Shown: piece after piece, positions 855-28,380 of the stretch
How positions within the stretch are numbered: position 1 is the first letter of the stretch
Layout: each line of letters opens with the position of its first letter
NCBI GenBank assembly: GCA_022823085.1
Contig: JAJDXV010000057.1
Location: 19,891 to 83,890, forward strand
Direction: 5' to 3'
Length of the DNA: 64,000 nucleotides
DNA from: Candidatus Poribacteria bacterium
GTDB taxonomy: Bacteria > Poribacteria > WGA-4E > WGA-3G
Notes under the pieces: model-generated
What the model saw: only the letters and a program-made list of their open reading frames with translations
What the model was told of the DNA's origin: nothing
The model's database searches: none
Translations under genes and position numbers: made by a program

Positions 855-2891
855 TCATTCTATCGCACCTGCAACCACAACAAGGTCAAGAATATTGACA
901 ACGCCATCGTCGTTAACATCTGCTGCATCTCCTTCTCCGACATGTCCAAGGCGATCCGTAACAAACGTTAAATCGTCAATATTTACGATCCCATCGGCGT
1001 TGACATCTTCAGGCACTTCAGACAGAATTTCCCACAAAAGAATCGCGCCATCTCCACCGCCGCTGGCAAGCGTCCTCCCATCGGGTGAAAACGCAACGGA
1101 GTTCACCTCGTACTTATTATGTCCGTTGAAAGTGGTGTGATTTTGACCTGTCTGTACGTCCCACAACCGGACGGTTCCGTCGCCGCCCGCGCTGGCAAGT
1201 GTGTGACCACCCCGCGAAAACGCAACGGAAGTTACACCCTCCGTATGTCCGCTAAAGATTTGGCTGAGCATGTTCGTTTCTGTATCCCATAATCGAATCG
1301 TGTCATCCCAACTCCCGCTGGCGAGTGTACGCCCCTCTGGCGAAAATGCTAAGGTCGTAACGGGTTTTCTATGTCCGCTCATGACTATTTTGAGTTGCGC
1401 GGTAGAGACATCCCACAACGATATAGAACCTTCTGTACCTGCACTGGCGAGTGTCTCTCCATCCGGCGAAAAAACCAAGCTATTAAAACCGTCGCGGTAT
1501 TTATCAAGGATCGCACGATTTTGGAGGGTCGCATGATCATGAATCGTATGTGCATCCCATAACCGGATCGTCCCGTTAAATCTTCCACTGGCGAATAACG
1601 CTCCGTCTGGTGAAAAAGCAATAGCCCCAAACCAATTTTGATACCTTGTGCGGAGTTCTCCTGTGCGCATGCTCCATACCAGAACCTCCTCCGAACTCCC
1701 ACTGACAAGTGTATTCCCATCCGGTGAGAATGTAAGTCCCCAAACATCAAATGCATAAGCTTCAAGTGTGGCTTTGTATCGTTGGGAATCCATATCCCAC
1801 AATTGAATTATGTGCGTTGAACTACCGCTCGCGAGGGTGCGCCCCTCCGGTGAAAACGTAACGACACCAACCCATCCCAGATACCCTCGGAGCGTAACAC
1901 GACTCTCGCCAGTCTCCACGTTCCACACCTTGATCGTGTCATTCCAACTCGCACTGATCAGCGTTTTGCTATCTGGCGAGAACGCTAACGCGGCAACAAA
2001 CGATGTATGTTCCGTAAAAGTTGTGAGCAGTTCGCCCGTTTGTACGTTCCACAATTCAATTAAGTAATCCTGCCAAGTGCCGCTGCTACAGGCAAGTGTT
2101 CTCCCGTCGGGTGAAAATGCAATGGCATCCACTAATTCTACAGCTCTGAAGGACTGTAAGAATTGACCGGTTTCGGTGTCCCACAATTCAATGCGTCGAC
2201 TGTTTGCATGTCTGATAGCAAGCGTTTTTCCATCTGATGAAAACATAGCATCCGAAGATCTATACAGTTTCACACCAATAGATTTTTGTTCCCCGGTCAG
2301 CACATCCCACACTCGAATCGTCCTGTCTGAACTCGCACTCACTAATCTTTTGCCATCTGGCATGAATGCGATAGTTTTCACCGAAGCGGTATGTCCTCTA
2401 AGGGCATTAAGTTGTTGACCGGTTTCGGTGTCCCACAACAAGATTTCTTTGGTATATGCGATGGCAAATGTTTTTCCATCTGGCGAGAACACAAGATCGT
2501 TAATATTATTTCCATAACCTGTTAGCGTAAGGCGGAGTTGCCCTGTGTAGACATCCCATAATCGAATCAATCCATCCCAACTTTCACTGGCGAGCGTCCT
2601 CCCATCTGGCGAAAACACAATTGCGGAGATTTCCGACACCGACGTATACCCAGTCAATAAAGCAGTCTCTTTATAGGTATAGGCATCATAGAGCCAAATT
2701 CCGATAGTACTCGCCACAGCGAAATGCGTACCCCTCGGTGAATATGCGAGGTCAACTATGCTGCCTTTACCGAGCCGTGCTATAGCCCCATCGGGCAAGT
2801 TCCATTGCGAAGCATCTTGCGCGAAATTGTTCAGTGGAAATAGCATAGAAATCAGTAAAAGCGCGAAAATAGAAATTGCGTTTAGCTTCAT
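855..2891 (-). CDS. WD40 (beta-propeller) repeat protein with signal peptide and C-terminal duplicated dockerin-like Ca-binding motif
   Basis: More than 12 WD-type repeats ('LASGSWDGTIRLWD', 'SGHT..V.SVAFSPDG'). C-terminus 'DVNADGIVNIDDL...DVNDDGVVNILDL' resembles type-I dockerin repeats. N-terminal hydrophobic signal. Confidence 0.8.
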   Translation of the reverse strand: MKLNAISIFALLLISMLFPLNNFAQDASQWNLPDGAIARLGKGSIVDLAYSPRGTHFAVASTIGIWLYDAYTYKETALLTGYTSVSEISAIVFSPDGRTLASESWDGLIRLWDVYTGQLRLTLTGYGNNINDLVFSPDGKTFAIAYTKEILLWDTETGQQLNALRGHTASVKTIAFMPDGKRLVSASSDRTIRVWDVLTGEQKSIGVKLYRSSDAMFSSDGKTLAIRHANSRRIELWDTETGQFLQSFRAVELVDAIAFSPDGRTLACSSGTWQDYLIELWNVQTGELLTTFTEHTSFVAALAFSPDSKTLISASWNDTIKVWNVETGESRVTLRGYLGWVGVVTFSPEGRTLASGSSTHIIQLWDMDSQRYKATLEAYAFDVWGLTFSPDGNTLVSGSSEEVLVWSMRTGELRTRYQNWFGAIAFSPDGALFASGRFNGTIRLWDAHTIHDHATLQNRAILDKYRDGFNSLVFSPDGETLASAGTEGSISLWDVSTAQLKIVMSGHRKPVTTLAFSPEGRTLASGSWDDTIRLWDTETNMLSQIFSGHTEGVTSVAFSRGGHTLASAGGDGTVRLWDVQTGQNHTTFNGHNKYEVNSVAFSPDGRTLASGGGDGAILLWEILSEVPEDVNADGIVNIDDLTFVTDRLGHVGEGDAADVNDDGVVNILDLVVVAGAIE

Positions 2892-3176
2892 CTGTCGGAT
2901 ACCTCCTTTTCAAGCAAAAGACGCTTGTCAGATACTTTAGCAATTTACATGCCAACGTCTGAAATGCTGAATCTACCGTTATCCGAAATTTTAAAACGGA
3001 CAATCTGCACAAAGATGGGCAGCCCGATGACACACTGCACGATATAGGGCATTGCATATCGTAAAAGCAAATTTCCTTGACTAAAGTCTCACCGGTATGC
3101 TAAATTGAGTATCAACGCTTATTGGAACAATTTTGCAGTTAGGTTTGAAACTTGTAGACAATAGGAGAGCAAACGC

Positions 3177-3962
3177 ATGAGCGATCTACAGTTGCAACAG
3201 TACCTCTTTGATGTGCAAGGCTACTTGGTCATCGAAAATGTCTTGAACTCAGAAGAACTTGCAGCCCTCAATCAATGCATTGACGAACAGCAGCTGCCGA
3301 CACCCGGAAAAGTCCAAAGATTTGGGAGCGCCCCCGGCGGTTCCGGTTTCCTGCAGTGGGGTAAACCGTTTTGTGATCTATTGGACCATCCGAAAATTAT
3401 GCCGATCCTCCGGTTCCGGTTAGGGGACTGCTTCCGTCTTGACCGGATTTACGGTATGTATATGAAGGAAGGCATGCGGCGAGGCGGTTTGCACGCCGAT
3501 TACGGTGCGACTGCACCGACGGCAAAAACAGAACCTGGCGAATATTACCCTTTCCGAGACAACGAAATTCACAACGGATTTGTCGTTGTAACGTGGAACC
3601 TCGCCGATACCGGACCGGAACACGGCGGATTTTGCTGCATTCCGGGCAGCCACAAAAGCAATTATAAGTTGCCACACCAGATAGCTGCGGCACCCGAAGA
3701 CTCATCTTGTGTCATCATACCGAACGCCCCTGCCGGTTCAGCGATCCTCTTTACTGAGGCGTTGACACACGGCACAGCGGCGTGGAACGGCAAACATCAA
3801 CGGAGATCATTGCTCTATAAATATTGTGTTTCGCACATTGCTTGGACATCGCGGCGCGTGGCACCCCCAGAGGAGATAGCACTCACAGCGCGTCAAAATA
3901 TCCTTTTTCGTGAACCTGGTGACCCCTATCGCCATTTCCCATCGCTGTTTGACACAGCGTAG
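3177..3962 (+). CDS. PhyH-family (phytanoyl-CoA dioxygenase-like) Fe(II)/2-oxoglutarate-dependent dioxygenase
   Basis: 261 aa. N-terminal 'LQQYLFDVQGYLVIENVL' and H-x-D...H arrangement ('GGLHADYG', 'EALTHGT') typical of the PhyH / ectoine-hydroxylase-like fold. Confidence 0.6.
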   Translation: MSDLQLQQYLFDVQGYLVIENVLNSEELAALNQCIDEQQLPTPGKVQRFGSAPGGSGFLQWGKPFCDLLDHPKIMPILRFRLGDCFRLDRIYGMYMKEGMRRGGLHADYGATAPTAKTEPGEYYPFRDNEIHNGFVVVTWNLADTGPEHGGFCCIPGSHKSNYKLPHQIAAAPEDSSCVIIPNAPAGSAILFTEALTHGTAAWNGKHQRRSLLYKYCVSHIAWTSRRVAPPEEIALTARQNILFREPGDPYRHFPSLFDTA

Positions 3963-4013
3963 CAGAAAATATCAAGAAACAGCAGCGGAGGTCGGGACCC
4001 CCGAACTGAAATT

Positions 4014-4712
4014 TTGAGTCAACCAAAACCACCCGTTCAAGCCATCATTTTCGACTTTGACTATACGCTCGCCGACTCTTCGCGTGGCGTAATTGCGTGT
4101 TTCAACTTCGCATTTGACAGACTCGGTTTGCCGATTGCCGATGATGCCACAATCCGGCAAACAATCGGTCTAACACTGCCCGATGCACTGGTGATGTTAG
4201 GTGGAAAAGAATACACGCGATATACGGATGCATTTACACAACTGTTTATGGAACGTGCTGATGAAATAATGGCGGACAACACGCAACTCTTTGAGGTTGT
4301 GCCTGAGACGGTCGAGACGTTGCGGGACCTCGGTATCCAGCTCGGTATTTTTTCATTGAAATACCGTTACCGTATCGAAACCGTACTCAAACGCGAGGCG
4401 TTGTTAGATGCATTTGAAGTCATCATCGGTGCCGAAGATGTATCGGAATATAAACCGAATCCGAAGGGTTTGTTGGTGGCGATGGAGCGATTGGATTGTG
4501 TCCGCGAAAATTGTCTCTATGTTGGCGATAGCCTGACCGATGCGAAAACGGCGCAACGTGCCGATACTGATTTTATCGCTGTGCTGTCGGGTGTCACGCC
4601 GCGAGCAACTTTTGAAGATCACGATGTTTATGCAATCCTTGGAGATGTTTCTGGGTTATTGGATTTAGAGGCTTTGACAAGTTCCCAATCAAGGAGTTCC
4701 AATGCCAAATAG
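4014..4712 (+). CDS. HAD-superfamily hydrolase (subfamily IA, phosphatase)
   Basis: Motif I 'FDFDYTLADS' (DxDxT) and motif IV 'VGDSLTDAKTAQRADTD'. 232 aa. Confidence 0.8.
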   Translation: MSQPKPPVQAIIFDFDYTLADSSRGVIACFNFAFDRLGLPIADDATIRQTIGLTLPDALVMLGGKEYTRYTDAFTQLFMERADEIMADNTQLFEVVPETVETLRDLGIQLGIFSLKYRYRIETVLKREALLDAFEVIIGAEDVSEYKPNPKGLLVAMERLDCVRENCLYVGDSLTDAKTAQRADTDFIAVLSGVTPRATFEDHDVYAILGDVSGLLDLEALTSSQSRSSNAK

Positions 4713-6342
4713 ACAACCTACTATTGGGGAGTACCTTCTAAAAAAATTAGAAAGTTACAATATTGGTCACATCTTCGGTATCCCCGGCGATTACGTAGTC
4801 CAGTTCTTTGATCTGATTGAACAGAGTCCGATTCAACACATCGGCACAACGCGAGAAGAGACAGCAGGATTCGCTGCGGATGCATATGCACGCACAAATG
4901 GTATGGGAGCTGCGTGTGTGACGTATGGTGTCGGCGGTTTATCTATGATTAACGCTGTCACTGCAGCCTACGCTGAAAAATCACCACTCGTTGTCATTAG
5001 CGGTAGCCCTGGCATGAAGGAGCGTACTGAGGGTGCACTTTTGCACCATAAAGGTAAAGATTTTTACACGCAGCAGCGTATCTATGATGAGATAACGGTT
5101 GCCTCAGCACTCCTTGATGAACCTTTTACCGCCTTTAACGAGATAGACAGAGTATTAGATGCGGTTTATTGGCATAAGCGTCCGGGCTACATTGAACTCC
5201 CACGCGATATGTTAAGTATACAAGGAGCCGTCCATCAACGTCCATCAACGGGTGGTCACCACAGTGACCCCGAAACATTGGAAGCAGCTTTAGCGAGTGC
5301 CATTGCGTTCATCAATCAATCCGAAAATCCAGTCATTTTAGCGGGGGCTGAACTGCATAGATTCGGATTTCGAGACAAATTACTTCGGCTTGCAGAAGAA
5401 AAACAGATCCCGGTAGTGACGACCCTATTGGGTAAATCAGTGATGCCGGAAGCGCACCCGCTCTACTTGGGTATTTACGGCGGCGCAATGGGCAGATCGG
5501 AAATCACAACGCTTGTTGAAACTTCCGATTGTATTATTATGCTGGGTGCCTTCATGACCGATGTCAACCTTGGGATCTACACGGCAAATCTGGCGCGAAG
5601 CCGGAGTGTCTATGCTATCTCGGATAAAATCACAGTCGGTTATTCCACTTATGAAGATGTTACTTTCGAGGATTTTATGGACGGTTTGTGTTCTCCACAA
5701 CTCGCCAAACGCCCCGAAGTCAACTTGGAATGGGTACTTGAAGTCGCAGACCCTTTTCTGATGGTCCCTGACCAAGCGTTAACTGTGCAGCGTTTGTTCC
5801 AACACCTCAATCAATATCTGCATGATGACCTGACGGTTATCCCTGATGTCGGAGACTGCCTTTGGGGTGCCGCAGATTTACGGCTGCCGGAACACACAGA
5901 ATTTATTTCTCAAGCATACTATACTTCAATGGGGTTTGCAATTCCTGCTGCTGTTGGTGCCCAACTCAGTAAACCCGATGCCCGGCCGATTGTAATCGTC
6001 GGAGATGGGGCATTCCAAATGACCGGCACCGAGTTGTCTACAACCATTCGCTACGGACTCAATCCGATCATTCTGATTTTAAACAACAAGGGGTATGGGA
6101 CCATTCGTCCTCTCGTTGAAGGCCCCTTTAACAATATAGAGAATTGGAACTATACACTTCTGCCAGAACTTTTCGGGGCAGGAAGGGCATTTTCTGTCCA
6201 GACCGAGGGCGAATTTGATGCTGCCATGAGGACAGCACTTGCCGAGACGCAACATTTTGTCCTGATTGAAGCAGAAATTGACAAATTAGACATGTCGCCT
6301 GCCCTTACCCGACTCGCAGAACGGGTTTCTGAGAAAGTTTAA
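4702..6342 (+). CDS. Thiamine-diphosphate-dependent alpha-keto acid decarboxylase (indolepyruvate/pyruvate decarboxylase family)
   Basis: 546 aa. N-terminal Pyr domain 'GHIFGIPGDYVVQFFD'. C-terminal ThDP-binding motif 'VGDGAFQMTGTELSTT...ILNNKGYG'. Overlaps the HAD gene by 11 nt, which suggests an operon. Confidence 0.8.
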   Translation: MPNRQPTIGEYLLKKLESYNIGHIFGIPGDYVVQFFDLIEQSPIQHIGTTREETAGFAADAYARTNGMGAACVTYGVGGLSMINAVTAAYAEKSPLVVISGSPGMKERTEGALLHHKGKDFYTQQRIYDEITVASALLDEPFTAFNEIDRVLDAVYWHKRPGYIELPRDMLSIQGAVHQRPSTGGHHSDPETLEAALASAIAFINQSENPVILAGAELHRFGFRDKLLRLAEEKQIPVVTTLLGKSVMPEAHPLYLGIYGGAMGRSEITTLVETSDCIIMLGAFMTDVNLGIYTANLARSRSVYAISDKITVGYSTYEDVTFEDFMDGLCSPQLAKRPEVNLEWVLEVADPFLMVPDQALTVQRLFQHLNQYLHDDLTVIPDVGDCLWGAADLRLPEHTEFISQAYYTSMGFAIPAAVGAQLSKPDARPIVIVGDGAFQMTGTELSTTIRYGLNPIILILNNKGYGTIRPLVEGPFNNIENWNYTLLPELFGAGRAFSVQTEGEFDAAMRTALAETQHFVLIEAEIDKLDMSPALTRLAERVSEKV

Positions 6343-6372
6343 CTCTAAAGGTAATAATATAAGGAGTTAACA

Positions 6373-6621
6373 ATGGGCTCAACTTTAGGCGGATTCGTAA
6401 TCCTACTCCTCGTGTATGCATCAGGTGCTATTTTTCTGACGGTCATGCTTGCTGTTGGCATCGCATGGGGTATCAGATGGGGTATCACTTGGTCGTTGAA
6501 AGAAATCTCCGGAGACCGTGAACTTGAAGCACGGCTGAAACGGATTCTCAGTCCTTCTGAAAATCAGATAAACAACAGCATACTCGAATCCACTACAGAA
6601 AACCGGAACGCATCAAATTAA
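6373..6621 (+). CDS. Small membrane protein (hypothetical)
   Basis: 82 aa with two hydrophobic helices. RBS 'AAGGAG' upstream. Lies 4 nt before the next gene. Confidence 0.35.
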   Translation: MGSTLGGFVILLLVYASGAIFLTVMLAVGIAWGIRWGITWSLKEISGDRELEARLKRILSPSENQINNSILESTTENRNASN

Positions 6622-18137: not shown

Positions 18138-20738
18138 ATGTTGAACGAGCAAAATACACGCCAATATCTCAAAGAATCCGAATTTGAAGACCTCTTTACG
18201 CAAGAACTCGGTTGGGACCATCACAACGACCCCCTCAACATCACAGTAGACGAAACCACATATCAACTCACCGCAATCGCCCAAAAACGCGGAATGGTCG
18301 TCTTTGAATGTCCTGCAGAAGTTTTCCCCCCGGATAAGGGGGGCAGGGGGATTACGCGCATCCCTGATTACGCCACCCGACGCAAGATCCAAAAACAAGT
18401 TGCAAAATCTGTTCACGAACATTTTATCATCTACACCGACCCTGAGAAAACGACAGACATTTGGCAGTGGGTCAAACGCGAGCAAGGCAAACCCGACGCA
18501 TGCCGTGAACACCGCTATAACCGTGCCGAACAGTCCGGCGATTCTCTGATTCAAAAACTACAAACCATCGCCTTTACTTTTCAAGAGGAAGAGGACCTTT
18601 CACTTATTGACGTAACCGGACGCGTTGGGACTGCCTTTTACGCTGAACGAGTTACCAAGAAATTCTATGACCGTTTCAAGAAAGAGCATGACGCATTCCT
18701 TAAATTCCTCAGTGGTATTCCAGATGAAGAGATGCAAAAGTGGTACGTCTCTGTGATGCTCAACCGTCTGATGTTCATCTATTTTATCCAAAAGAAAAAT
18801 TTCCTTGATAACGACATAGACTATCTATGTACCAAACTGACTGAGAGTCAAGCGAATAGCACCAACCGGTACTACCGAGACTTCCTCTGTCCGCTCTTTT
18901 TTGAGGGGTTTGCGAAACCGGAAAACGAGCGGAGCAGAGAGATGAAACGCCTGCTCGGTAAAATCCCTTACCTCAACGGTGGTATCTTCCAACAACACCA
19001 ACTTGAGACGCTTCACGGCGAAAACATTGACATCCCTGATAAAGCATTTGAACAGATTTTTAACTTCTTTGAGCAATACGACTGGCACCTTGATGACCGT
19101 CCCCTACGCAACGACAACGAGATTAATCCTGATGTTCTCGGTTATATCTTCGAGAAATACATCAACCAGAAGCAGATGGGTGCGTACTACACCAAAGAGG
19201 ACATCACCGAGTACATCAGCAAAAACACGATAATTCCGTTCCTTTTTGACAAGGCAAAAAAAGCGTGCAAAATAGCGTTTGAAGGCGAGGCATCCGTCTG
19301 GAACTTGCTACAAGAAGACCCTGACCGCTACATCTATGATTCCGTCAAAAACGGAATCTACGATACTGATGGGGTAAAAAAAAATCTTCCATCAGAAATT
19401 GCTATCGGAATTGATGATGTTTCCAAGCGTACCGATTGGAACACACTCGCGGACCCCGATTATGCTTTACCAACAGAAATCTGGCGGGAGACCGTCGCAC
19501 GTCGGCAGCGTTATGAAACCGTCCGATCCAAACTCGCCAACGGAGAGGTCCGCGACATCAACGATCTGATTACCTACAACCTTGACATCCGCCAATTCGC
19601 ACAAGATGTTATCGAAAATTGTGAGGGCCCCGAACTGCTCCGCGCCTTCTGGAAAGCCATCACCGAAGTAACAATCTTGGATCCGACGTGTGGCTCCGGG
19701 GCGTTCCTCTTTGCTGCGCTCAACATCCTCGAACCACTTTACGAAGCATGCCTTGATCGGATGCAAGTTTTCCTTGATGAGACGGGAACGGTTTCCTCCC
19801 TGATAAGGGGGGCAGGGGGGTTAGAGGATACTCCTAAAAAACCGAACTCCCGTAGATACAACGACTTTCGCGAACTCCTTGATCGCATTGATGAACATCC
19901 CAACCGCAAATATTTTACCCTCAAATCCATCATTATCAACAATCTCTACGGCGTAGACATCATGGACGAGGCAATCGAAATCTGCAAGCTGCGCCTCTTC
20001 CTCAAAATGGTGGCGCAACTTGAAGACGTGAAACGGATTGAACCACTACCGGACATCGACTTTAACATCCAAGCAGGCAATACCCTCGTCGGTTATGCCA
20101 CTTATGATGCGGTGGAAAAACCGGAGAGACGCAGGCTTGATTTTGAAAATGCAATGAAGGGTATTAGAGAAAAAGCTGAGGATGTGAAGATTCTATTTCA
20201 GGAGTTTCGCAGGCAGCAGACAACATTAGGCGGTGCCGTGACATATGCGGACAAAAAGAATTTACAAGATAGACTTCGGGAATTAGAAGATGAGCTCAAC
20301 TTATATCTCGCTGAAGAATACGGCGTTGATTCGAACAAACAATCTGATTACGAAAACTGGCTAAATTCACATAAACCTTTTCATTGGTTCATTGCATTTT
20401 ACGATATTCTTGAAGACGGTGGATTTAATGTCATTATCGGCAATCCGCCGTATGTGGAGTATAGTGCGGTGAAGGATGAGTACACGATTAGAGGTTATAA
20501 AACAGAAAGTTGCGGTAACCTATACGCATTTGTGTTTGAAAGAGGCTTCCATCTTCTTCAGCGCAATGGTTGGAAATCAATGATAGTTCCACACTCAGTG
20601 TACTGTACCGATAGAATGGAATCCATCCAGAATCTATTTCATTGTTCTAAGCGAGTGGGGTGGGTTCAAACATATAGCATCCGTCCGGCAAAATTGTTTG
20701 TCGGAGCCGAACAACGGTTAGCGATTTATATTCTTTAG
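18138..20738 (+). CDS. Gamma-class N6-adenine DNA methyltransferase (Eco57I / Type IIG / PglX-like), truncated at codon 866 by a MITE insertion
   Basis: Motif I 'ILDPTCGSGAFLFAA'; motif IV 'GNPPYVEY'. The ORF terminates at a TAG created at the MITE boundary (20736-20738). The continuation is in the same frame at 20857..21599. Confidence 0.85.
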   Translation: MLNEQNTRQYLKESEFEDLFTQELGWDHHNDPLNITVDETTYQLTAIAQKRGMVVFECPAEVFPPDKGGRGITRIPDYATRRKIQKQVAKSVHEHFIIYTDPEKTTDIWQWVKREQGKPDACREHRYNRAEQSGDSLIQKLQTIAFTFQEEEDLSLIDVTGRVGTAFYAERVTKKFYDRFKKEHDAFLKFLSGIPDEEMQKWYVSVMLNRLMFIYFIQKKNFLDNDIDYLCTKLTESQANSTNRYYRDFLCPLFFEGFAKPENERSREMKRLLGKIPYLNGGIFQQHQLETLHGENIDIPDKAFEQIFNFFEQYDWHLDDRPLRNDNEINPDVLGYIFEKYINQKQMGAYYTKEDITEYISKNTIIPFLFDKAKKACKIAFEGEASVWNLLQEDPDRYIYDSVKNGIYDTDGVKKNLPSEIAIGIDDVSKRTDWNTLADPDYALPTEIWRETVARRQRYETVRSKLANGEVRDINDLITYNLDIRQFAQDVIENCEGPELLRAFWKAITEVTILDPTCGSGAFLFAALNILEPLYEACLDRMQVFLDETGTVSSLIRGAGGLEDTPKKPNSRRYNDFRELLDRIDEHPNRKYFTLKSIIINNLYGVDIMDEAIEICKLRLFLKMVAQLEDVKRIEPLPDIDFNIQAGNTLVGYATYDAVEKPERRRLDFENAMKGIREKAEDVKILFQEFRRQQTTLGGAVTYADKKNLQDRLRELEDELNLYLAEEYGVDSNKQSDYENWLNSHKPFHWFIAFYDILEDGGFNVIIGNPPYVEYSAVKDEYTIRGYKTESCGNLYAFVFERGFHLLQRNGWKSMIVPHSVYCTDRMESIQNLFHCSKRVGWVQTYSIRPAKLFVGAEQRLAIYIL

Positions 20739-20856
20739 GACTTACGCATATCGCTCTTTTGTACCACAATCTGTTAGATTGTGACGCAAAAACGCTGTGT
20801 TTTCAGAAGAATCTCATCTAACAGAGCCACCTATAGCCAAAAGTGCGTAAGTCCTG
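20736..20856. mobile_element. 121-bp MITE copy 1 with 13-bp terminal inverted repeats and 5-bp target-site duplication TTCTT, inserted in the methyltransferase gene
   Basis: Ends TAGGACTTACGCA...TGCGTAAGTCCTG. Direct repeats TTCTT at 20731-20735 and 20857-20861. Internal palindrome CACAATCTGTTAGATTGTG. About 85% identical to the copy at 49592-49713. Confidence 0.85.
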
Positions 20857-21599
20857 TTCTTCAACAAGGTTCAAAGCCGTCTGATATTTTATATGCTTCT
20901 CGCTATCACAGATGGCATAAACAGTTTCGCTCTCATCTCTTTGCAGTTACGGAACATGCAGATGTTACGCAGATGTCGTTTAAAAACTCGGTCACCAAAA
21001 TATACAGTAACGTTGAACAAAGCCTATGGAAGAAATTATCTCAATTCTCAGTTTTAGGTAACTACCTCATTAGAAGCAGAACTCCTTACACAGTACATTT
21101 CCATAATGCACCGCGTTACTGGATTCGGGCAATGGACTTCGCACCTTACTTCTGGAACGAGCGAGATGGGGAGAAAATATCAACTCAGGTCAAGCCCCTA
21201 TACTTAACAGCAGAATTGGATGCGACCGTAGTCGTAGCAGCTTTGAATAGTTCACTCTTTTATTGGTGGTATGTTATTCTCTCTGATTGTCGCCATTTGA
21301 ATCTACGCGAAATTAGAGGTTTTTGCATCGGAATTGATGAAATGGAGGCGAAGATAAAGCAAAGTCTTTCTCAAATTTCTGCTGACTTGATGGCGGATTT
21401 AAAACACCACGCGCACCGTAAGGAAACAAGTTACAAAACTACTGGCAAAGTAGTCTATGACGAATTTTTCCCACGTCACTCCAAATCCATCATAGACAAG
21501 ATTGACCGCGTGCTTGCCCAACACTACGGCTTCACAGACGAGGAATTAGATTTCATCATCAACTATGACATCAAGTATCGGATGAGCTTGGGAAATTGA
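20857..21599 (+). pseudogene. Displaced C-terminal (putative target-recognition) part of the methyltransferase
   Basis: Removing the MITE and one TSD copy joins '...LAIYIL' directly to 'QQGSKPSDILYASRYHRWHKQ...' in frame, giving about 1120 aa in total. The track ORF 20781..21599 starts inside the MITE. Confidence 0.75.
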
Positions 21600-22997: not shown

Positions 22998-24380
22998 ATG
23001 GAAATCACCGATCTCAAACAACGCATCGCACAACGCGAAAATACCACAACCGAATTCAAAGAGAACTTCGATCAAGAAGTAATTGAGACCGCTGCTGCGT
23101 TTGCCAATACCGATGGCGGTACGATTCTTATTGGCGTATCTGATAGCGGAGAAATCAGAGGTATTACCATCGGCAAAGAGACGCTAAGAGATGTATCAAA
23201 CCGGATTTCGCAAGCGACTGAACCGCGGTCGGTCCTGGACGTTGCGTCAGTTGACGTAGAAGGAAAGTCATTGCTGTTGGTGCATATCTCGGAAGCTTCC
23301 ATAAAACCTGTTTCTGTTAGGGGAAGATGCTATAAGAGAATCGGAAATAGCAACCGCGTCATGTCCCCACAAGAGATTGCACAGATGCACCTCAACGCTA
23401 CCGGACAAACTTGGGATCAACTCTTAGTTACACGTGCTGGACTTGATGATATAGATGAGAAAAAAGTCGAATGGTATCTGACCCGTCGAGAGACAATCCG
23501 GAATGTGTCTATACCGCAAGATATGAACATGGCAGCGTTTTTGAAGAACATTAAGGGTATCAGCGATGACGGAACACCAACCCACGCGGGGCTTCTTTTT
23601 TTCAGTAAGCACTCGCTACTAAGATTCTTCCACAACGCGCAATTACGAGTCGTCAGATTCAAAGGAACATCTGTCACCCATCCGGTCCTTGATCGGCTTG
23701 ATTGCGGCGAGACGCTCTGGGAAAACGTCGAGACCGCCGAGGAATTTATAAGAAAAAACATCCGATTGCTCAGTTTTCGGACCTCAAGGCGTTTCCAAAG
23801 AGACGATAAGTTTGAATACCCGCTTAATGCACTACGGGAGGCAATAATCAACGCCTTGATTCACCGCAATTACCAAGAAACTGCGGATGTCCGGGTCTTT
23901 ATATTTGACAACCGCGTTGAGGTTATCAGTCCCGGCACTTTTCCAGAAGGTGTTAGTCCAGATGAACCGGCTCACAAACCGGTAAACCCTACTTTGAGTC
24001 AATTCATGTTTGATGTCGGTTTCATTGAACGGTACGGTGCCGGTATCAGGATGATGCAAAGGTTATGCAGGGAATGGGGAAACAAAGCACCGCGTTATGA
24101 ATTTCACCCGCTTGAAACCAAAATCATCTTTGATTCCCCGATTCAAGAGAGCACTTATATTGAAATTGACGACATTTCAGAGCAGTTGAACGAGCGTCAA
24201 AAGAATGCGTTTTTCTACGTGCAAAGAAACGGGCAAATCACAAGAAAGGAATACATAGAGATTAATCATGTCTCAGTCCGGATCGCCTATGAGGAACTAA
24301 GAGATCTAACAGACAAAGGATTATTACATGTAACAGGCAAGGGTAGAGGAACCAAGTACGTACAAAAGGTAAACGATTAG
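22998..24380 (+). CDS. AlbA_2 (Schlafen-like 'divergent AAA') + HATPase_c_4/wHTH domain protein
   Basis: N-terminus 'TTEFKENFDQEVIETAAAFANTDGGTILIGVSDSGEIRGI' is typical of the AlbA_2 domain. C-terminal 'ALREAIINALIHRNY' is the HATPase_c_4-type motif. Confidence 0.7.
   Translation: MEITDLKQRIAQRENTTTEFKENFDQEVIETAAAFANTDGGTILIGVSDSGEIRGITIGKETLRDVSNRISQATEPRSVLDVASVDVEGKSLLLVHISEASIKPVSVRGRCYKRIGNSNRVMSPQEIAQMHLNATGQTWDQLLVTRAGLDDIDEKKVEWYLTRRETIRNVSIPQDMNMAAFLKNIKGISDDGTPTHAGLLFFSKHSLLRFFHNAQLRVVRFKGTSVTHPVLDRLDCGETLWENVETAEEFIRKNIRLLSFRTSRRFQRDDKFEYPLNALREAIINALIHRNYQETADVRVFIFDNRVEVISPGTFPEGVSPDEPAHKPVNPTLSQFMFDVGFIERYGAGIRMMQRLCREWGNKAPRYEFHPLETKIIFDSPIQESTYIEIDDISEQLNERQKNAFFYVQRNGQITRKEYIEINHVSVRIAYEELRDLTDKGLLHVTGKGRGTKYVQKVND
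23217..23251. repeat. 35-bp direct repeat, copy 2 (inside the AlbA_2-like CDS, encoding 'TEPRSVLDVASV')
   Basis: 33/35 identical to 14091-14125. Confidence 0.7.
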
Positions 24381-24426: not shown

Positions 24427-25731
24427 ATGCCAAGACAAAAGGGTGAAGGTATCACCAAGATAGCCGTGAAGGGTTTCAAGTCCATCGCGGAGGAATGCGA
24501 AATCGACATTCGTCCGCTGACGATTCTTTCCGGTGCAAATAGTTCCGGGAAATCCAGCATCATGCAACCGCTCCTGATGCTGAAACAGACGCTGGAGGCA
24601 CCGTATGATCCGGGGCCGTTGTTGATTGATGGACCGAATGTTCAGTTTACTGAGGTGGCACAATTTTTATCCCAGTTAACCGGCGGAAAAAAAGCAGATT
24701 GTTTTCAGATACGAATTGATACTTGTGATTCTGATTTTGCTTACTCAGTGGAAACAACTTTCAAAAAAGGGAAGACCGGGCTTGAAATTGCCAAAATGAC
24801 AACTGAAGTGAGACAAGCTGCTCAACCATTACCTTTCAAACATTATACCCTATATCCTGAAATGTCGGCTGAAGAAATCAGCGCACTGGGTAGCCAAGGT
24901 CCAATGCGTAGTGATTTTAAGGCGGTGAAACGTTTACGTTGTTTTTTGGGTTTTGAATCTCAAGCAAGTGATCATCTCTTTAATGTTACCTACAACCCTG
25001 TTGAGGCTTACATTTTTGACAGTATCCATCTCCCCGGATTACGAGGCAATCCAGTACGCATCTACAAATTTACCAGCACCGGTCCCTTATACCCCGGCAT
25101 ATTTGAACATTATGCTGCAAGCATTATTCACGAATGGCAGGAAACAACAGATGAACGCCTGAAAACGTTAGTTGATGCCCTTCATACACTTGGATTGACA
25201 AGACAAGTTAGCACAAAAAAAATCGGTGATGTCGGCATTGAAATTCAGGTCGGTCGCCTTCTACACGACAACGCTGGCGAAACGGACCTGGTCAATATAG
25301 CTGATGTAGGCTTTGGAGTATCTCAAGTTTTGCCCGCTATAGTAGCATTGATTGTAGCGGAACCGGGACAATTGGTTTATCTCGAACAACCCGAGCTGCA
25401 CCTCCATCCGCGCGCCCAAGTGGCATTGGCGAGAGTATTAGCAGACGCGGCGAAACGGGGTGTCCGAGTTGTCGTCGAGACGCACAGTTCGCTACTGCTT
25501 TTGGGAGTTCAAACGCTTGTTGCCGAAGGAGACCTCCCGCCGGAATTAGTTAAGCTTCACTGGTTTTCACGGAACAAAGATGGGGTGACTGAAGTTGATA
25601 GCGTGGACTTAGACGAAGCAGGGACTTATGGGGATTGGTCCATGGATTTTGATGATGTCAGTCTTAGCGTGCAGAGTCGTTTTCTTGATGCCGTAGACAA
25701 TGTTAGATTTGGTGAAAAGGAGGCTTCGTGA
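24427..25731 (+). CDS. ABC-type (AAA_21/DUF3696-like) ATPase
   Basis: Walker A 'GANSSGKSS'; Walker B / D-loop region 'LVYLEQPELHLHPRAQVALARVLA...VVVETHSS'. 434 aa. Confidence 0.7.
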   Translation: MPRQKGEGITKIAVKGFKSIAEECEIDIRPLTILSGANSSGKSSIMQPLLMLKQTLEAPYDPGPLLIDGPNVQFTEVAQFLSQLTGGKKADCFQIRIDTCDSDFAYSVETTFKKGKTGLEIAKMTTEVRQAAQPLPFKHYTLYPEMSAEEISALGSQGPMRSDFKAVKRLRCFLGFESQASDHLFNVTYNPVEAYIFDSIHLPGLRGNPVRIYKFTSTGPLYPGIFEHYAASIIHEWQETTDERLKTLVDALHTLGLTRQVSTKKIGDVGIEIQVGRLLHDNAGETDLVNIADVGFGVSQVLPAIVALIVAEPGQLVYLEQPELHLHPRAQVALARVLADAAKRGVRVVVETHSSLLLLGVQTLVAEGDLPPELVKLHWFSRNKDGVTEVDSVDLDEAGTYGDWSMDFDDVSLSVQSRFLDAVDNVRFGEKEAS

Positions 25732-26261
25732 GATCAAGAAATTCAAAACGATTAGTAATTGACACAGATGTTGCCCAAGCGTCTGGTGATGAGGCAGCAA
25801 CCGATCCACGGGCTATCAATTGTCGTGATTTCCTAAAGGAAGTAAGGACTCAAGATCATAGGGTGGTGATGACGAGAGAAATCAGCGACGAGTGGAAAAG
25901 ACATCAATCTCACTTTGCCTTTGAGTGGCGGGTGTCAATGGATGCGCGTAGAAAAATAGACCGCATCAATCCACCAGAATATGCAGAGATCCAAGCCAAA
26001 GTCACAAACACAACAAGCGATGAAGATGAGATTGAAGCTCTACAAAAAGATTTTCACCTTCTCCAAGCAGCACTCACAACCGATCAAACGGTTATTTCAC
26101 TGGACGAAACCGTCCGAGGACTTTTTGCACATGCGTCCCAACAGGTCGGCGAAATCCAGCACATCATCTGGGTCAACCCAGATAGAACAGCAGAAGAACA
26201 ACCCATCGCTTGGCTCCAAAACGGCGCACTACCTGAAGCACATCGTCAACTTTCCGCTTGA
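25728..26261 (+). CDS. Small partner protein of the ATPase (177 aa; possible PIN-like/nuclease fold)
   Basis: GTG start overlapping the ATPase stop (GTGA). Strong RBS 'AAAAGGAGG' 5 nt upstream. N-terminal 'RLVIDTDVAQ' resembles the first strand and acidic residues of PIN-like domains. Confidence 0.5.
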   Translation: MRSRNSKRLVIDTDVAQASGDEAATDPRAINCRDFLKEVRTQDHRVVMTREISDEWKRHQSHFAFEWRVSMDARRKIDRINPPEYAEIQAKVTNTTSDEDEIEALQKDFHLLQAALTTDQTVISLDETVRGLFAHASQQVGEIQHIIWVNPDRTAEEQPIAWLQNGALPEAHRQLSA

Positions 26262-26624: not shown

Positions 26625-27314
26625 GTGATACCGCCAATTCAACGCATCACACAAACAGACCCGATTTATCCAAAAAAACTAAAGGATTTCCTAAAAACAG
26701 AAGCTCCAGAAACAATTTGGGCACGCGGAAATATCGACTTGTTACCGGGAATAGATACCGCTTTCAACGGAAACCTCTGGGCACTCTTCTGTTCCAAAAA
26801 ATGTCCCGGGGAGCTGATATTGAAGACGCACGACTTGGCGCAGAGGTTTAAGGAGAGAGGTATCCCAACGATCGGAGGCTATCATTCGCCGATTGAACAG
26901 GAATGTCTGCGTGTCTTACTGCGTGGTGTACAACCGATTCTCTTATGTCCGGCACGGAGCATCGAAAATATGCGACTGAAATCGGTATGGAGAGACGCAT
27001 TTGCCAAGGAACGGTTATTAATTTTATCTCCGTTTGAAAGTCGCTACAATCGACAGACAGAGGCGTTGGCGAACCGACGCAACGCTTTCGTTGCAGCACT
27101 CGCAGACAAAATCTATATCGCACACGCTGCTGAAGGTGGTAAGACATTAAAATTCGCAGAGAAGGTGATAGCCGAAGGCAAATCCGTTTTTACCTTTGAG
27201 ACACCAGCAAACGAAGCACTCTTTCAACTTGGCGCAGAACGGATGGAACCGTCCCTATATGTCGAGAAAAAAGCAAACGCTACTACGGTAACAGCACAAT
27301 TCGGAGGAACATAA
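26625..27314 (+). CDS. DprA/Smf-like (SLOG superfamily, Rossmann fold) protein
   Basis: GTG start with RBS 'AAGGA'. Layout 'LFCSKKCPGELILKTHDLAQ...IGGYHSPIEQECL...LILSPFESRYNRQTEALANRRNAFVAALADKIYIAHAAEGGKT' parallels the DprA Rossmann domain. Confidence 0.55.
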   Translation: MIPPIQRITQTDPIYPKKLKDFLKTEAPETIWARGNIDLLPGIDTAFNGNLWALFCSKKCPGELILKTHDLAQRFKERGIPTIGGYHSPIEQECLRVLLRGVQPILLCPARSIENMRLKSVWRDAFAKERLLILSPFESRYNRQTEALANRRNAFVAALADKIYIAHAAEGGKTLKFAEKVIAEGKSVFTFETPANEALFQLGAERMEPSLYVEKKANATTVTAQFGGT

Positions 27315-28216: not shown

Positions 28217-28236
28217 TCTAAACATATAAGCAGGAT

Positions 28237-28380
28237 ATGTATACTTTTTGGCGATTTTTATACATATCGGCACTGATATGTATAATTTGTATACATATCG
28301 ATCCGGACATGTATACTTTTTGGCAATTTCTATACATATCGGCACTGATATGTATAATTTGTATACATACTGATTTGCTC
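28237..28380. repeat. Two tandem 72-bp units, each an imperfect palindrome (ATGTATAC...TATACATATCGGCACTGATATGTATA...GTATACAT), between convergent genes
   Basis: Unit 1 is 28237-28308 and unit 2 is 28309-28380, about 93% identical. Each has 9-bp arms TATACATAT/ATATGTATA and terminal inverted 8-mers. Confidence 0.8.

Follow-up and report, generated by a model that had tools for sequence, protein, structure and literature searches.

An ABC-type ATPase and a small PIN-fold protein of Candidatus Poribacteria probably form a HEC-03-type anti-phage system

Introduction

What is the function of two overlapping genes that lie side by side on the forward strand of a Candidatus Poribacteria contig? The genes, which encode a 434-aa ABC-type ATPase and a 177-aa partner, were found in a stretch of 64,000 nucleotides (contig JAJDXV010000057.1 of assembly GCA_022823085.1, positions 19,891 to 83,890), referred to here as the window, and coordinates are counted from its first nucleotide. 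An earlier note, made from the sequence alone, had proposed that they constitute a two-gene defence pair in which an ABC-type ATPase accompanies a nuclease-like effector. We conclude, with a probability of roughly 0.72, that the two genes alone make up an anti-phage system of the HEC-03 type, in which an ABC ATPase from the NsnB/HEC-03 clade is paired with a small RNase that is metal-dependent and has a PIN fold. This reading is based on the predicted PIN fold, the conservation of catalytic residues, the strict linkage of the two genes, the homology of the ATPase, and probably of the PIN protein, to HEC-03, the location in defence islands and prophages, and purifying selection. The trigger, the contact between ATPase and PIN protein, the RNA substrate and the abortive outcome are proposed by analogy with related systems.

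The 177-aa protein has a predicted PIN nuclease fold

The 177-aa protein had no meaningful match in Pfam, PADLOC, NCBIfam or PHROGs, and sequence and profile searches of the PDB with its family returned matches at chance level only; clear homology to a non-defence family was not found in these collections. A word-indexed search identified 508 relatives, every one labelled “hypothetical”, the best 120 of which were 73–100% identical to the window protein and derived mostly from Candidatus Poribacteria. When 1.84 billion cluster representatives were searched exhaustively with a profile, 2,155 matched at E≤1e-3 and 486 at E≤1e-30, each representing a cluster at 50% identity, and nearly all were standalone proteins of ∼175–185 aa.

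Structural models were computed with AlphaFold2 (AF2). A shallow alignment of 21 sequences, all ≥73% identical, gave a predicted local distance difference test score (pLDDT) of 46.8, and a diverse alignment of 137 sequences gave a model with a pLDDT of 97.4 and a predicted TM-score (pTM) of 0.92. When this model was compared with the PDB using Foldseek, the first match was a Mycobacterium tuberculosis VapC from a toxin-antitoxin (TA) complex (7vwo_A; E 7.7e-4, probability 1.0, TM-scores 0.53/0.64). The further top matches were all PIN nucleases, and included HARP (minimal protein-only RNase P; 7og5 and 8kd9), Nob1, VapC4, Utp24 and ZC3H12C. A search of the viral structures in BFVD returned nothing significant. 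As judged from the model, the 177-aa protein is a PIN nuclease fold with a Rossmann-like α/β/α arrangement. Weak matches to PIN-clan Pfam families were also present among the 137 members (PIN_12 in 7, PIN_3 in 6, NYN in 3, PIN_10 in 2 and PIN_8 in 1).

Across 140 diverse members, a D-E-D-D tetrad was conserved at 99% (D12), 99% (E55), 100% (D108) and 92% (D126), and W56, D119 and S124 were likewise among the positions conserved at 91–100%. D12 is located at the end of β1 in the AF2 model, E55 in the helix that follows β2, and D108 in the helix that precedes β4, while D126 belongs to an S-x-D motif (S124-x-D126) that comes after β4. Residues of the tetrad are spaced by 43, 53 and 18 positions, and we take their placement to be canonical for PIN domains and their spacing to be VapC-like. 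With its tetrad conserved, the domain looks catalytically competent. The N-terminus of the protein, MRSRNSKRLVIDTDVAQ, had been described in the earlier note as a possible PIN-like acidic first strand. This proved apt for the fold and for D12, but not for the second Asp of “DTD”: D14 is variable and is replaced by Ser in 63% of the 140 members, and since it is unconserved, D12 alone is considered the catalytic residue of the first strand. Towards the C-terminus, the family shares a conserved extension (W148-x-N150-P151 ... W162-L163 .. G166-A167).

The ATPase and PIN genes are strictly linked

All elements of the gene layout described in the earlier note, including a 4-nt GTGA overlap between the two genes and the Shine-Dalgarno sequence AAAAGGAGG ahead of the second, are present in the sequence (Table 1). 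As read from the nucleotides, the overlap amounts to translational coupling of the ATPase and PIN genes, and an abutting or overlapping arrangement recurs in related loci. A scan for promoters and terminators identified sites no more frequently than expected by chance.

Linkage was assessed in two sets of loci. For the first, which drew on four loci obtained by exact protein look-up and 50 reference-genome loci, the ATPase was sought by tblastn. It was located directly 5′ of the PIN gene, in the same orientation, in every locus of this set (56/56), including non-Poribacteria loci from Cyanobacteria (L046 and L047), Acidobacteriota (L050 and L054) and Polyangia (L055). The second set came from a scan with a motif taken from non-Poribacteria members through a 17-sequence sub-alignment, which identified 172 relatives in metagenomes, among them those of soil, sediment and peat; 80 of these were kept, plus two contigs from IMG/VR. 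An ATPase gene was found immediately 5′ in 80/80 metagenome and viral loci with enough upstream sequence, and the remaining two have <51 bp upstream. The co-occurrence analysis suggested in the earlier note gave adjacency in 136/136 judgeable loci when both sets were combined. The apparent bias of the family towards Poribacteria comes from search patterns that had been built on sequences of this phylum.

Intact copies are under purifying selection, with ratios of nonsynonymous to synonymous substitution (dN/dS) of 0.20 for the PIN gene and 0.11 for the core of the ATPase gene, values that are rough since dS is ∼1. Purifying selection on both genes and their adjacency in every judgeable locus indicate that the pair is more than a chance association. 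Clustering of flanking open reading frames (ORFs) in 57 + 44 loci with flanks revealed no conserved third gene. The neighbours examined included TPR/HigBA-like, thioredoxin-like and RecQ proteins, and ParB-DUF262 was not found among them.

Decayed copies were also observed. The ATPase gene is frameshifted in L001, the PIN genes of L034 and L056 are truncated, and in a fourth locus (L048, Poribacteria, OZ244563.1; 4371–6324) an insertion of ∼1.4 kb divides the PIN gene, such that residues 1–85 are encoded at 4371–4625 and residues 70–177 at 6001–6324. The insertion could be a mobile element with a duplicated target. Such sporadic pseudogenised copies are consistent with a dispensable and costly accessory system.

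A separate observation concerns four Poribacteria loci (L007, L023, L037 and L044) at which the identities of the ATPase and the PIN protein to their window counterparts are discordant, for example 84% and 75% in L023, 70% and 84% in L007, and 70% and 50% in L044. The mismatch points tentatively to recombination, either between the genes or inside them.

The ATPase, and probably the PIN protein, are related to those of HEC-03

HEC-03 (Hma-embedded candidate 03) consists of an ABC ATPase and a VapC-like PIN protein; the Pseudomonas cichorii system protects E. coli from phages, requires both genes to do so, and shows toxicity once induced (Payne et al. 2024, bioRxiv 10.1101/2024.01.29.577857). 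Its ATPase is WP_025259138.1, annotated as DUF3696-containing, and its PIN protein is WP_025259137.1, of 157 aa (Payne et al. 2024 supplement). The two genes occupy positions 322707–324092 and 324079–324552 on the same strand, with the PIN start 14 nt before the end of the ATPase gene. HEC-03 and the window pair therefore share an organization in which the ABC ATPase comes first, a small PIN protein second, and the coding regions overlap.

BLASTP between the window and HEC-03 ATPases gave 33% identity over 201 aa (E 8e-21), together with a segment containing the P-loop at 38% over 69 aa (E 3e-7). Common motifs are GxNSSGKSS, DVGFGVSQVLPA and EQPE(I/L)HLHP; in the HEC-03 protein, DVGFGVSQVLPA stands at the GxG signature and MEQPE at Walker B. 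On these alignments the two ATPases are homologous. For the PIN proteins, hhalign compared a profile of the 137 members with a profile of 40 HEC-03 PIN relatives and returned a probability of 93.8% (E 1.7e-7) across the N-terminal 91 columns only, a region that covers the β1 Asp, a conserved Cys and an E-(W/Y)..H motif. When a profile was compared with a single sequence instead, the probability was 7%. By profile comparison, the two PIN families are probably remote homologues.

Several differences are nonetheless apparent. The window PIN protein is ∼20 aa longer than that of HEC-03 and carries the conserved C-terminal extension; the window ATPase fits the NsnB model better, by score, than the HEC-03 model and matches DUF3696 only below threshold, unlike the annotated HEC-03 ATPase; and the hosts of the window family are Poribacteria, Cyanobacteria, Acidobacteriota and Myxococcota, as opposed to Pseudomonas and Burkholderia for HEC-03. 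The pair is probably a divergent HEC-03-class system, missed by existing models, with an architecture already known and validated in HEC-03. The suggestion of the earlier note that the pair might be a different family fails at the level of architecture, as the combination of an ABC ATPase with a PIN protein had been described and validated as HEC-03, to which the window ATPase is homologous and the window PIN protein probably so.

The ATPase belongs to the NsnB/HEC-03 clade

The ATPase matched the Pfam families AAA_21 (7.6e-24) and AAA_15 (1.5e-23). Its best PADLOC models were NsnB (6.9e-52, residues 9–410 versus positions 2–333 of 345), HEC-03B (1.8e-39) and PDC-M55A (6.9e-35), and the models for AriA (8e-27), GajA, Old and AbiLi matched far more weakly than these three. 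The motifs named in the earlier note (GANSSGKSS, VVVETHSS and VYLEQPELHLHP, the last being the Walker B/D-loop block) are present, and Walker A, E320 and H353 are invariant among the 85 family ATPases over which motif invariance was scored (Table 1). Three features depart from a canonical ABC ATPase: a GxG signature replaces the signature motif, Walker B has E-Q for D-E, and an Arg (R206, 84/85 members) occupies the position of the Q-loop Gln.

Two further regions are candidates for specific functions. A hypervariable insert, taken here as the Insert-1 region of ABC ATPases, has a dN/dS of 0.39, ∼3.4-fold the value of the core, again a rough figure at dS ∼1. It is a candidate for the surface that senses the phage trigger. 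At the other end of the protein, the conserved C-terminal tail occupies the position of Pfam DUF3696, which is matched only sub-threshold (E 0.15). By analogy with AlphaFold3 (AF3) models of NsnB-NsnC, this tail is a candidate docking site for the PIN partner. We propose that the ATPase is a sensor or regulator of the OLD-ABC group, within the NsnB/HEC-03 clade.

Table 1. Features of the ATPase-PIN pair and of adjoining genes, in window coordinates.
Feature	Position	Strand	Basis or remarks
ABC-type ATPase gene, 434 aa	24427..25731	+	ORF list
177-aa PIN-fold protein gene, GTG start	25728..26261	+	ORF list
GTGA start/stop overlap	25728..25731	+	GTG 25728-25730 overlaps TGA stop 25729-25731 of the ATPase gene; 4 nt
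Shine-Dalgarno AAAAGGAGG for the PIN gene	25715..25723	+	Read from sequence; 4 nt 5′ of GTG, within the end of the ATPase gene
Walker A/P-loop, G36-ANSSG-K42-S43 (GANSSGKSS)	24532..24555	+	G36, G41, K42 and S43 invariant in 85 ATPases
Hypervariable insert, residues ∼81-200	24667..25026	+	Column conservation 0.42-0.60 versus 0.85-0.97 in flanking core
GxG signature, G295-F-G297, replacing signature motif	25309..25317	+	G295 and G297 invariant in 85 ATPases
Walker B, LVYL-E320-Q321-P-E323, E-Q for canonical D-E	25372..25395	+	E320 85/85, Q321 80/85, P322-E323 invariant
H-loop, E351-T-H353-S (in VVVETHSS)	25477..25488	+	E351, H353 and S354 invariant; T352 84/85
Conserved C-terminal tail, LHWF..G.T..LD..G.yG.WP.DF, DUF3696-like	25540..25662	+	W379, F380, G386, T388, G399, D407 and F408 invariant; D396, G402 and W404 84/85
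PIN catalytic residues (predicted)	D12 25761-25763, E55 25890-25892, D108 26049-26051, D126 26103-26105	+	Conservation and PIN positions
Type IIG restriction-methyltransferase	18138-21599	+	PADLOC REase_MTase_IIG 1.2e-279 (18138-20738) and 5.2e-51 (20781-21599), contiguous model positions
Schlafen AlbA_2 + HATPase_c_4 (GHKL-like) protein, 460 aa, HTH-like C-terminal end	22998-24380	+	
DprA-like protein directly 3′ of the pair	26625-27314	+	PF02481 6.7e-12; PADLOC PsyrA 1.6e-20, ShosA 2.4e-4

Genomic context and the weighing of alternative functions

On the viral contig L137 (IMG/VR, 83 kb; 2861–6519), the pair adjoins a complete Kiwa system (KwaB 4.6e-125, KwaA 1.1e-67), and pair and Kiwa together are flanked by an ArpU-type activator and an integrase on one side and by the large terminase gene (TerL) on the other. 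A second IMG/VR contig, L138, also carries the pair next to Kiwa, with the same neighbours in a different order, which suggests modular shuffling. In Poribacteria, the pair occupies a fixed syntenic site, bounded on one side by genes for a Der-like GTPase, a 2-hydroxyacid dehydrogenase and a xanthine permease, and on the other by PhyH, PhyH, aminotransferase and sulfatase genes. Its immediate neighbours vary and include the Schlafen/GHKL gene (15 loci), HigB + TPR genes, restriction-modification (RM) fragments, a PLD/SNF2 helicase and the DprA-like gene (20 loci). The pair is apparently a vertically inherited syntenic anchor in this phylum, around which the RM, Schlafen/GHKL, HigBA-TPR, SNF2/PLD and DprA-like genes come and go. 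Overall, the genomic context supports a defence role.

The PIN fold, the D-E-D-D tetrad, the strict linkage and the defence contexts, Kiwa included, all bear out the proposal of a two-gene defence pair. Four observations weigh against a HEC-03-type anti-phage function. Similarity of the PIN protein to HEC-03 is confined to the N-terminal half (the 91 columns given above); BLASTP of the window PIN protein against its HEC-03 counterpart was not significant; and the PADLOC model HEC-03A had 0 matches to the window PIN protein and matched 2/137 members, at E∼0.005. In addition, most Poribacteria genomes carry the pair at a single syntenic chromosomal position, a pattern closer to stable vertical inheritance than to the patchiness typical of defence genes.

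An alternative that would accommodate such persistence at one locus is a TA or addiction module, in which a VapC-like PIN toxin is held by the ATPase as an unconventional antitoxin and stabilises the island without a role in phage defence. We consider this unlikely. It would fit the origin of the best structural match (7vwo_A) in a TA complex, the D-E-D-D tetrad shared with VapC, the tight coupling of the genes through overlapping stop and start codons, the toxicity of induced HEC-03, and the Pfam label of AAA_21 (“putative AbiEii toxin, Type IV TA system”). Unlike VapBC type II systems, however, the pair has no VapB-type antitoxin: the partner of the PIN protein is encoded upstream and is an ABC ATPase of 434 aa whose nucleotide-binding motifs are intact and whose insert evolves fast, unlike the small, labile VapB. 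The homologous HEC-03 has measured phage protection that requires both genes, and addiction and defence by abortive infection can coexist.

The variable surroundings of the pair also bear on a second alternative, that the PIN protein is a housekeeping RNA-processing enzyme, for example one akin to HARP (a protein-only RNase P) or to Nob1 (an rRNA maturase), with the ATPase as its chaperone and vertical inheritance in Poribacteria. Foldseek matches to HARP, Nob1 and Utp24 had probabilities of 0.9–1.0, synteny and good sequence conservation extend over ∼45 Poribacteria genomes, and the pair is under purifying selection. The HARP alignments, however, have TM-scores of ∼0.5 and root-mean-square deviations of 5–8 Å, which corresponds to generic PIN-fold similarity, and the apparent bias towards Poribacteria stems from the Poribacteria-based search patterns; the second pattern recovered the 172 metagenome relatives. 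In other phyla the contexts are unrelated and variable, on viral contigs the pair lies beside Kiwa, frameshifted, truncated and insertion-disrupted copies exist, and the ATPase clade is known only from conflict systems. A housekeeping role is therefore very improbable, and an anti-phage module of the HEC-03 type remains the favoured interpretation.

Comparison with Menshen and other ATPase-nuclease systems

Menshen (NsnABC), reportedly described by Millman et al. in 2022, provided the best PADLOC model for the ATPase. In this system NsnA (ParB-DUF262 + ParBDB) is encoded upstream of NsnB, and NsnC consists of an inactive PIN domain (inPIN) followed by a C-terminal toxin (Li et al. 2025, PMC12065111). 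NsnB differs from a typical ABC ATPase in having Walker B D-E changed to E-N, the Q-loop Gln changed to Arg, SGG changed to GxG, and a DUF3696 tail; all NsnC inPIN families are without D-E-D-D, and the PIN-like domain is predicted to bind NsnB, as in an NsnB4-NsnC2 complex modelled by AF3 (PMC12065111). The window ATPase resembles NsnB in its best model, its Walker B (E-Q versus E-N), R206, GxG and the helical C-terminal tail, and in both systems the gene 3′ of the ATPase begins with a PIN-fold domain. Three differences separate them. Loci of the window family are without NsnA (the gene upstream in the window encodes SLFN_AlbA_2/HATPase_c_4, and the 57 + 44 loci with flanks share no third gene); the window 177-aa protein is PIN only and has no C-terminal BECR or other toxin domain; and it keeps the D-E-D-D tetrad that the NsnC inPIN families do not. 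With no NsnA, no toxin domain and D-E-D-D retained, the pair is not Menshen, and PADLOC NsnC models had no match among the 137 PIN members.

It is hardly credible that the pair is a degenerate, non-functional Menshen remnant, an NsnB with a truncated NsnC from which NsnA and the toxin domain were lost, because the features that would suit this idea (NsnB as best ATPase model at 6.9e-52, and an NsnC that starts with a PIN-like domain predicted to bind NsnB) are set against ∼100 loci with flanks that lack a conserved third gene, neighbours examined that lack ParB-DUF262, a catalytic tetrad absent from every NsnC inPIN family, the silence of the NsnC models on all 137 members, and 2,155 clusters of uniform length (∼175–185 aa) under purifying selection, which are not decay products.

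The converse relationship is a tentative possibility: the window PIN family and HEC-03 might represent a catalytically active two-gene core from which the NsnB-NsnC module of Menshen derives. If so, the PIN protein would originally have been the effector and would have become an inactive adaptor (inPIN) after the gain of C-terminal toxins and of the NsnA DNA sensor, and the contact between ATPase tail and PIN domain would be an ancient, reusable docking interface common to HEC-03, the window family and Menshen. The Menshen paper (PMC12065111) contains no mention of HEC-03, and a literature search on ABC ATPase and PIN proteins in phage defence turned up the HEC-03 and Menshen papers only.

The logic of Septu, PARIS, AbiL and Gabija, to which the earlier note had compared the pair, applies as an analogy, but the closest ATPase models are those of NsnB (Menshen), HEC-03 and PDC-M55. 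PARIS (AriA/AriB), Septu (PtuA/PtuB), AbiL, Gabija and PrrC/RloC follow the general scheme proposed here, in which infection is sensed by an ABC ATPase of the OLD type that controls an associated nuclease. PARIS AriB and PrrC act on tRNA. PtuAB of Retron-Eco7 is reported to act on tRNA also. The effectors of these systems are Toprim (AriB, GajA, AbiLii), HNH (PtuB) or anticodon nuclease proteins, as opposed to PIN in the window pair. Membership in PARIS, Septu or Gabija was rejected on account of this wrong effector fold, and PADLOC nuclease models for PARIS, Septu, Gabija and AbiL had no match to the window PIN protein or to members of its family.

Proposed mechanism and significance

A working model for the pair can be put together by analogy with PARIS, Septu and the predicted NsnB4-NsnC2 complex. 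An ATPase oligomer would hold the PIN protein inactive through the conserved DUF3696-like tail, while the hypervariable insert would read a phage cue. The natural E-Q substitution in Walker B might impair hydrolysis and so produce a slow, switch-like conformational change that depends on nucleotide, and this change would release or activate the PIN protein. The latter would then cleave RNA, most plausibly tRNA or rRNA by comparison with VapC-type PIN proteins, and RNA cleavage would arrest the infected cell, resulting in abortive infection.

Three aspects of the pair are new. The first is the size and breadth of the unannotated PIN family, which has >2,000 clusters at 50% identity, spans many phyla and occurs in some phages. 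The second is its invisibility to current defence finders, as PADLOC would report an orphan “NsnB” only, the PIN partner having no Pfam, NCBIfam or PADLOC model. The third is that the family may link HEC-03 and Menshen in evolution, a connection drawn in neither paper. Defining the family would extend the HEC-03 class well past Pseudomonas and Burkholderia. The pair would also offer mechanistic studies a compact system in which an ATPase controls an RNase, and for the biology of sponge symbionts it marks a conserved, probable defence locus of Poribacteria.

Neighbouring genes and minor observations

The genomic surroundings cited in the earlier note were a Schlafen-like ATPase, a HigBA remnant and a restriction module. 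The Schlafen-like protein (22998–24380) and a Type IIG RM gene are indeed encoded 5′ of the pair, but the “HigBA remnant” corresponds to a weak helix-turn-helix match (TIGR03070, E 0.001). The Type IIG gene is broken by two in-frame TAG stops (20736–20738 and 20775–20777) and is probably a pseudogene. Since the Schlafen/GHKL gene is found 5′ of the pair in only 15/56 loci, it is probably an independent defence candidate. The DprA-like gene is located directly 3′ of the pair in 20/56 related loci, and no helicase partner PsyrT was seen adjoining it. On these frequencies a functional link of the pair to either gene was rejected.

The Schlafen (SLFN)/GHKL protein matches the N-terminal part (positions 49–479) of the PADLOC model for prokaryotic Argonaute (pAgo) at 6.3e-23. 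It is thus similar to SLFN-pAgo proteins in their SLFN+GHKL part but lacks the Argonaute core. In one Poribacteria clade (L033, L041, L044, L045 and L051), inspection by eye showed two proteins encoded immediately 5′ of the pair, sometimes in duplicate: a HigB-like toxin of 112 aa, and one of 415 aa that combines a HigA-like region at its N-terminus with TPR repeats. Further downstream in the window, a 72-bp tandem repeat (28233–28369; 1.9 copies, 95% identical) is located between the PhyH and aminotransferase genes, and gives rise to spurious repetitive ORFs on both strands.

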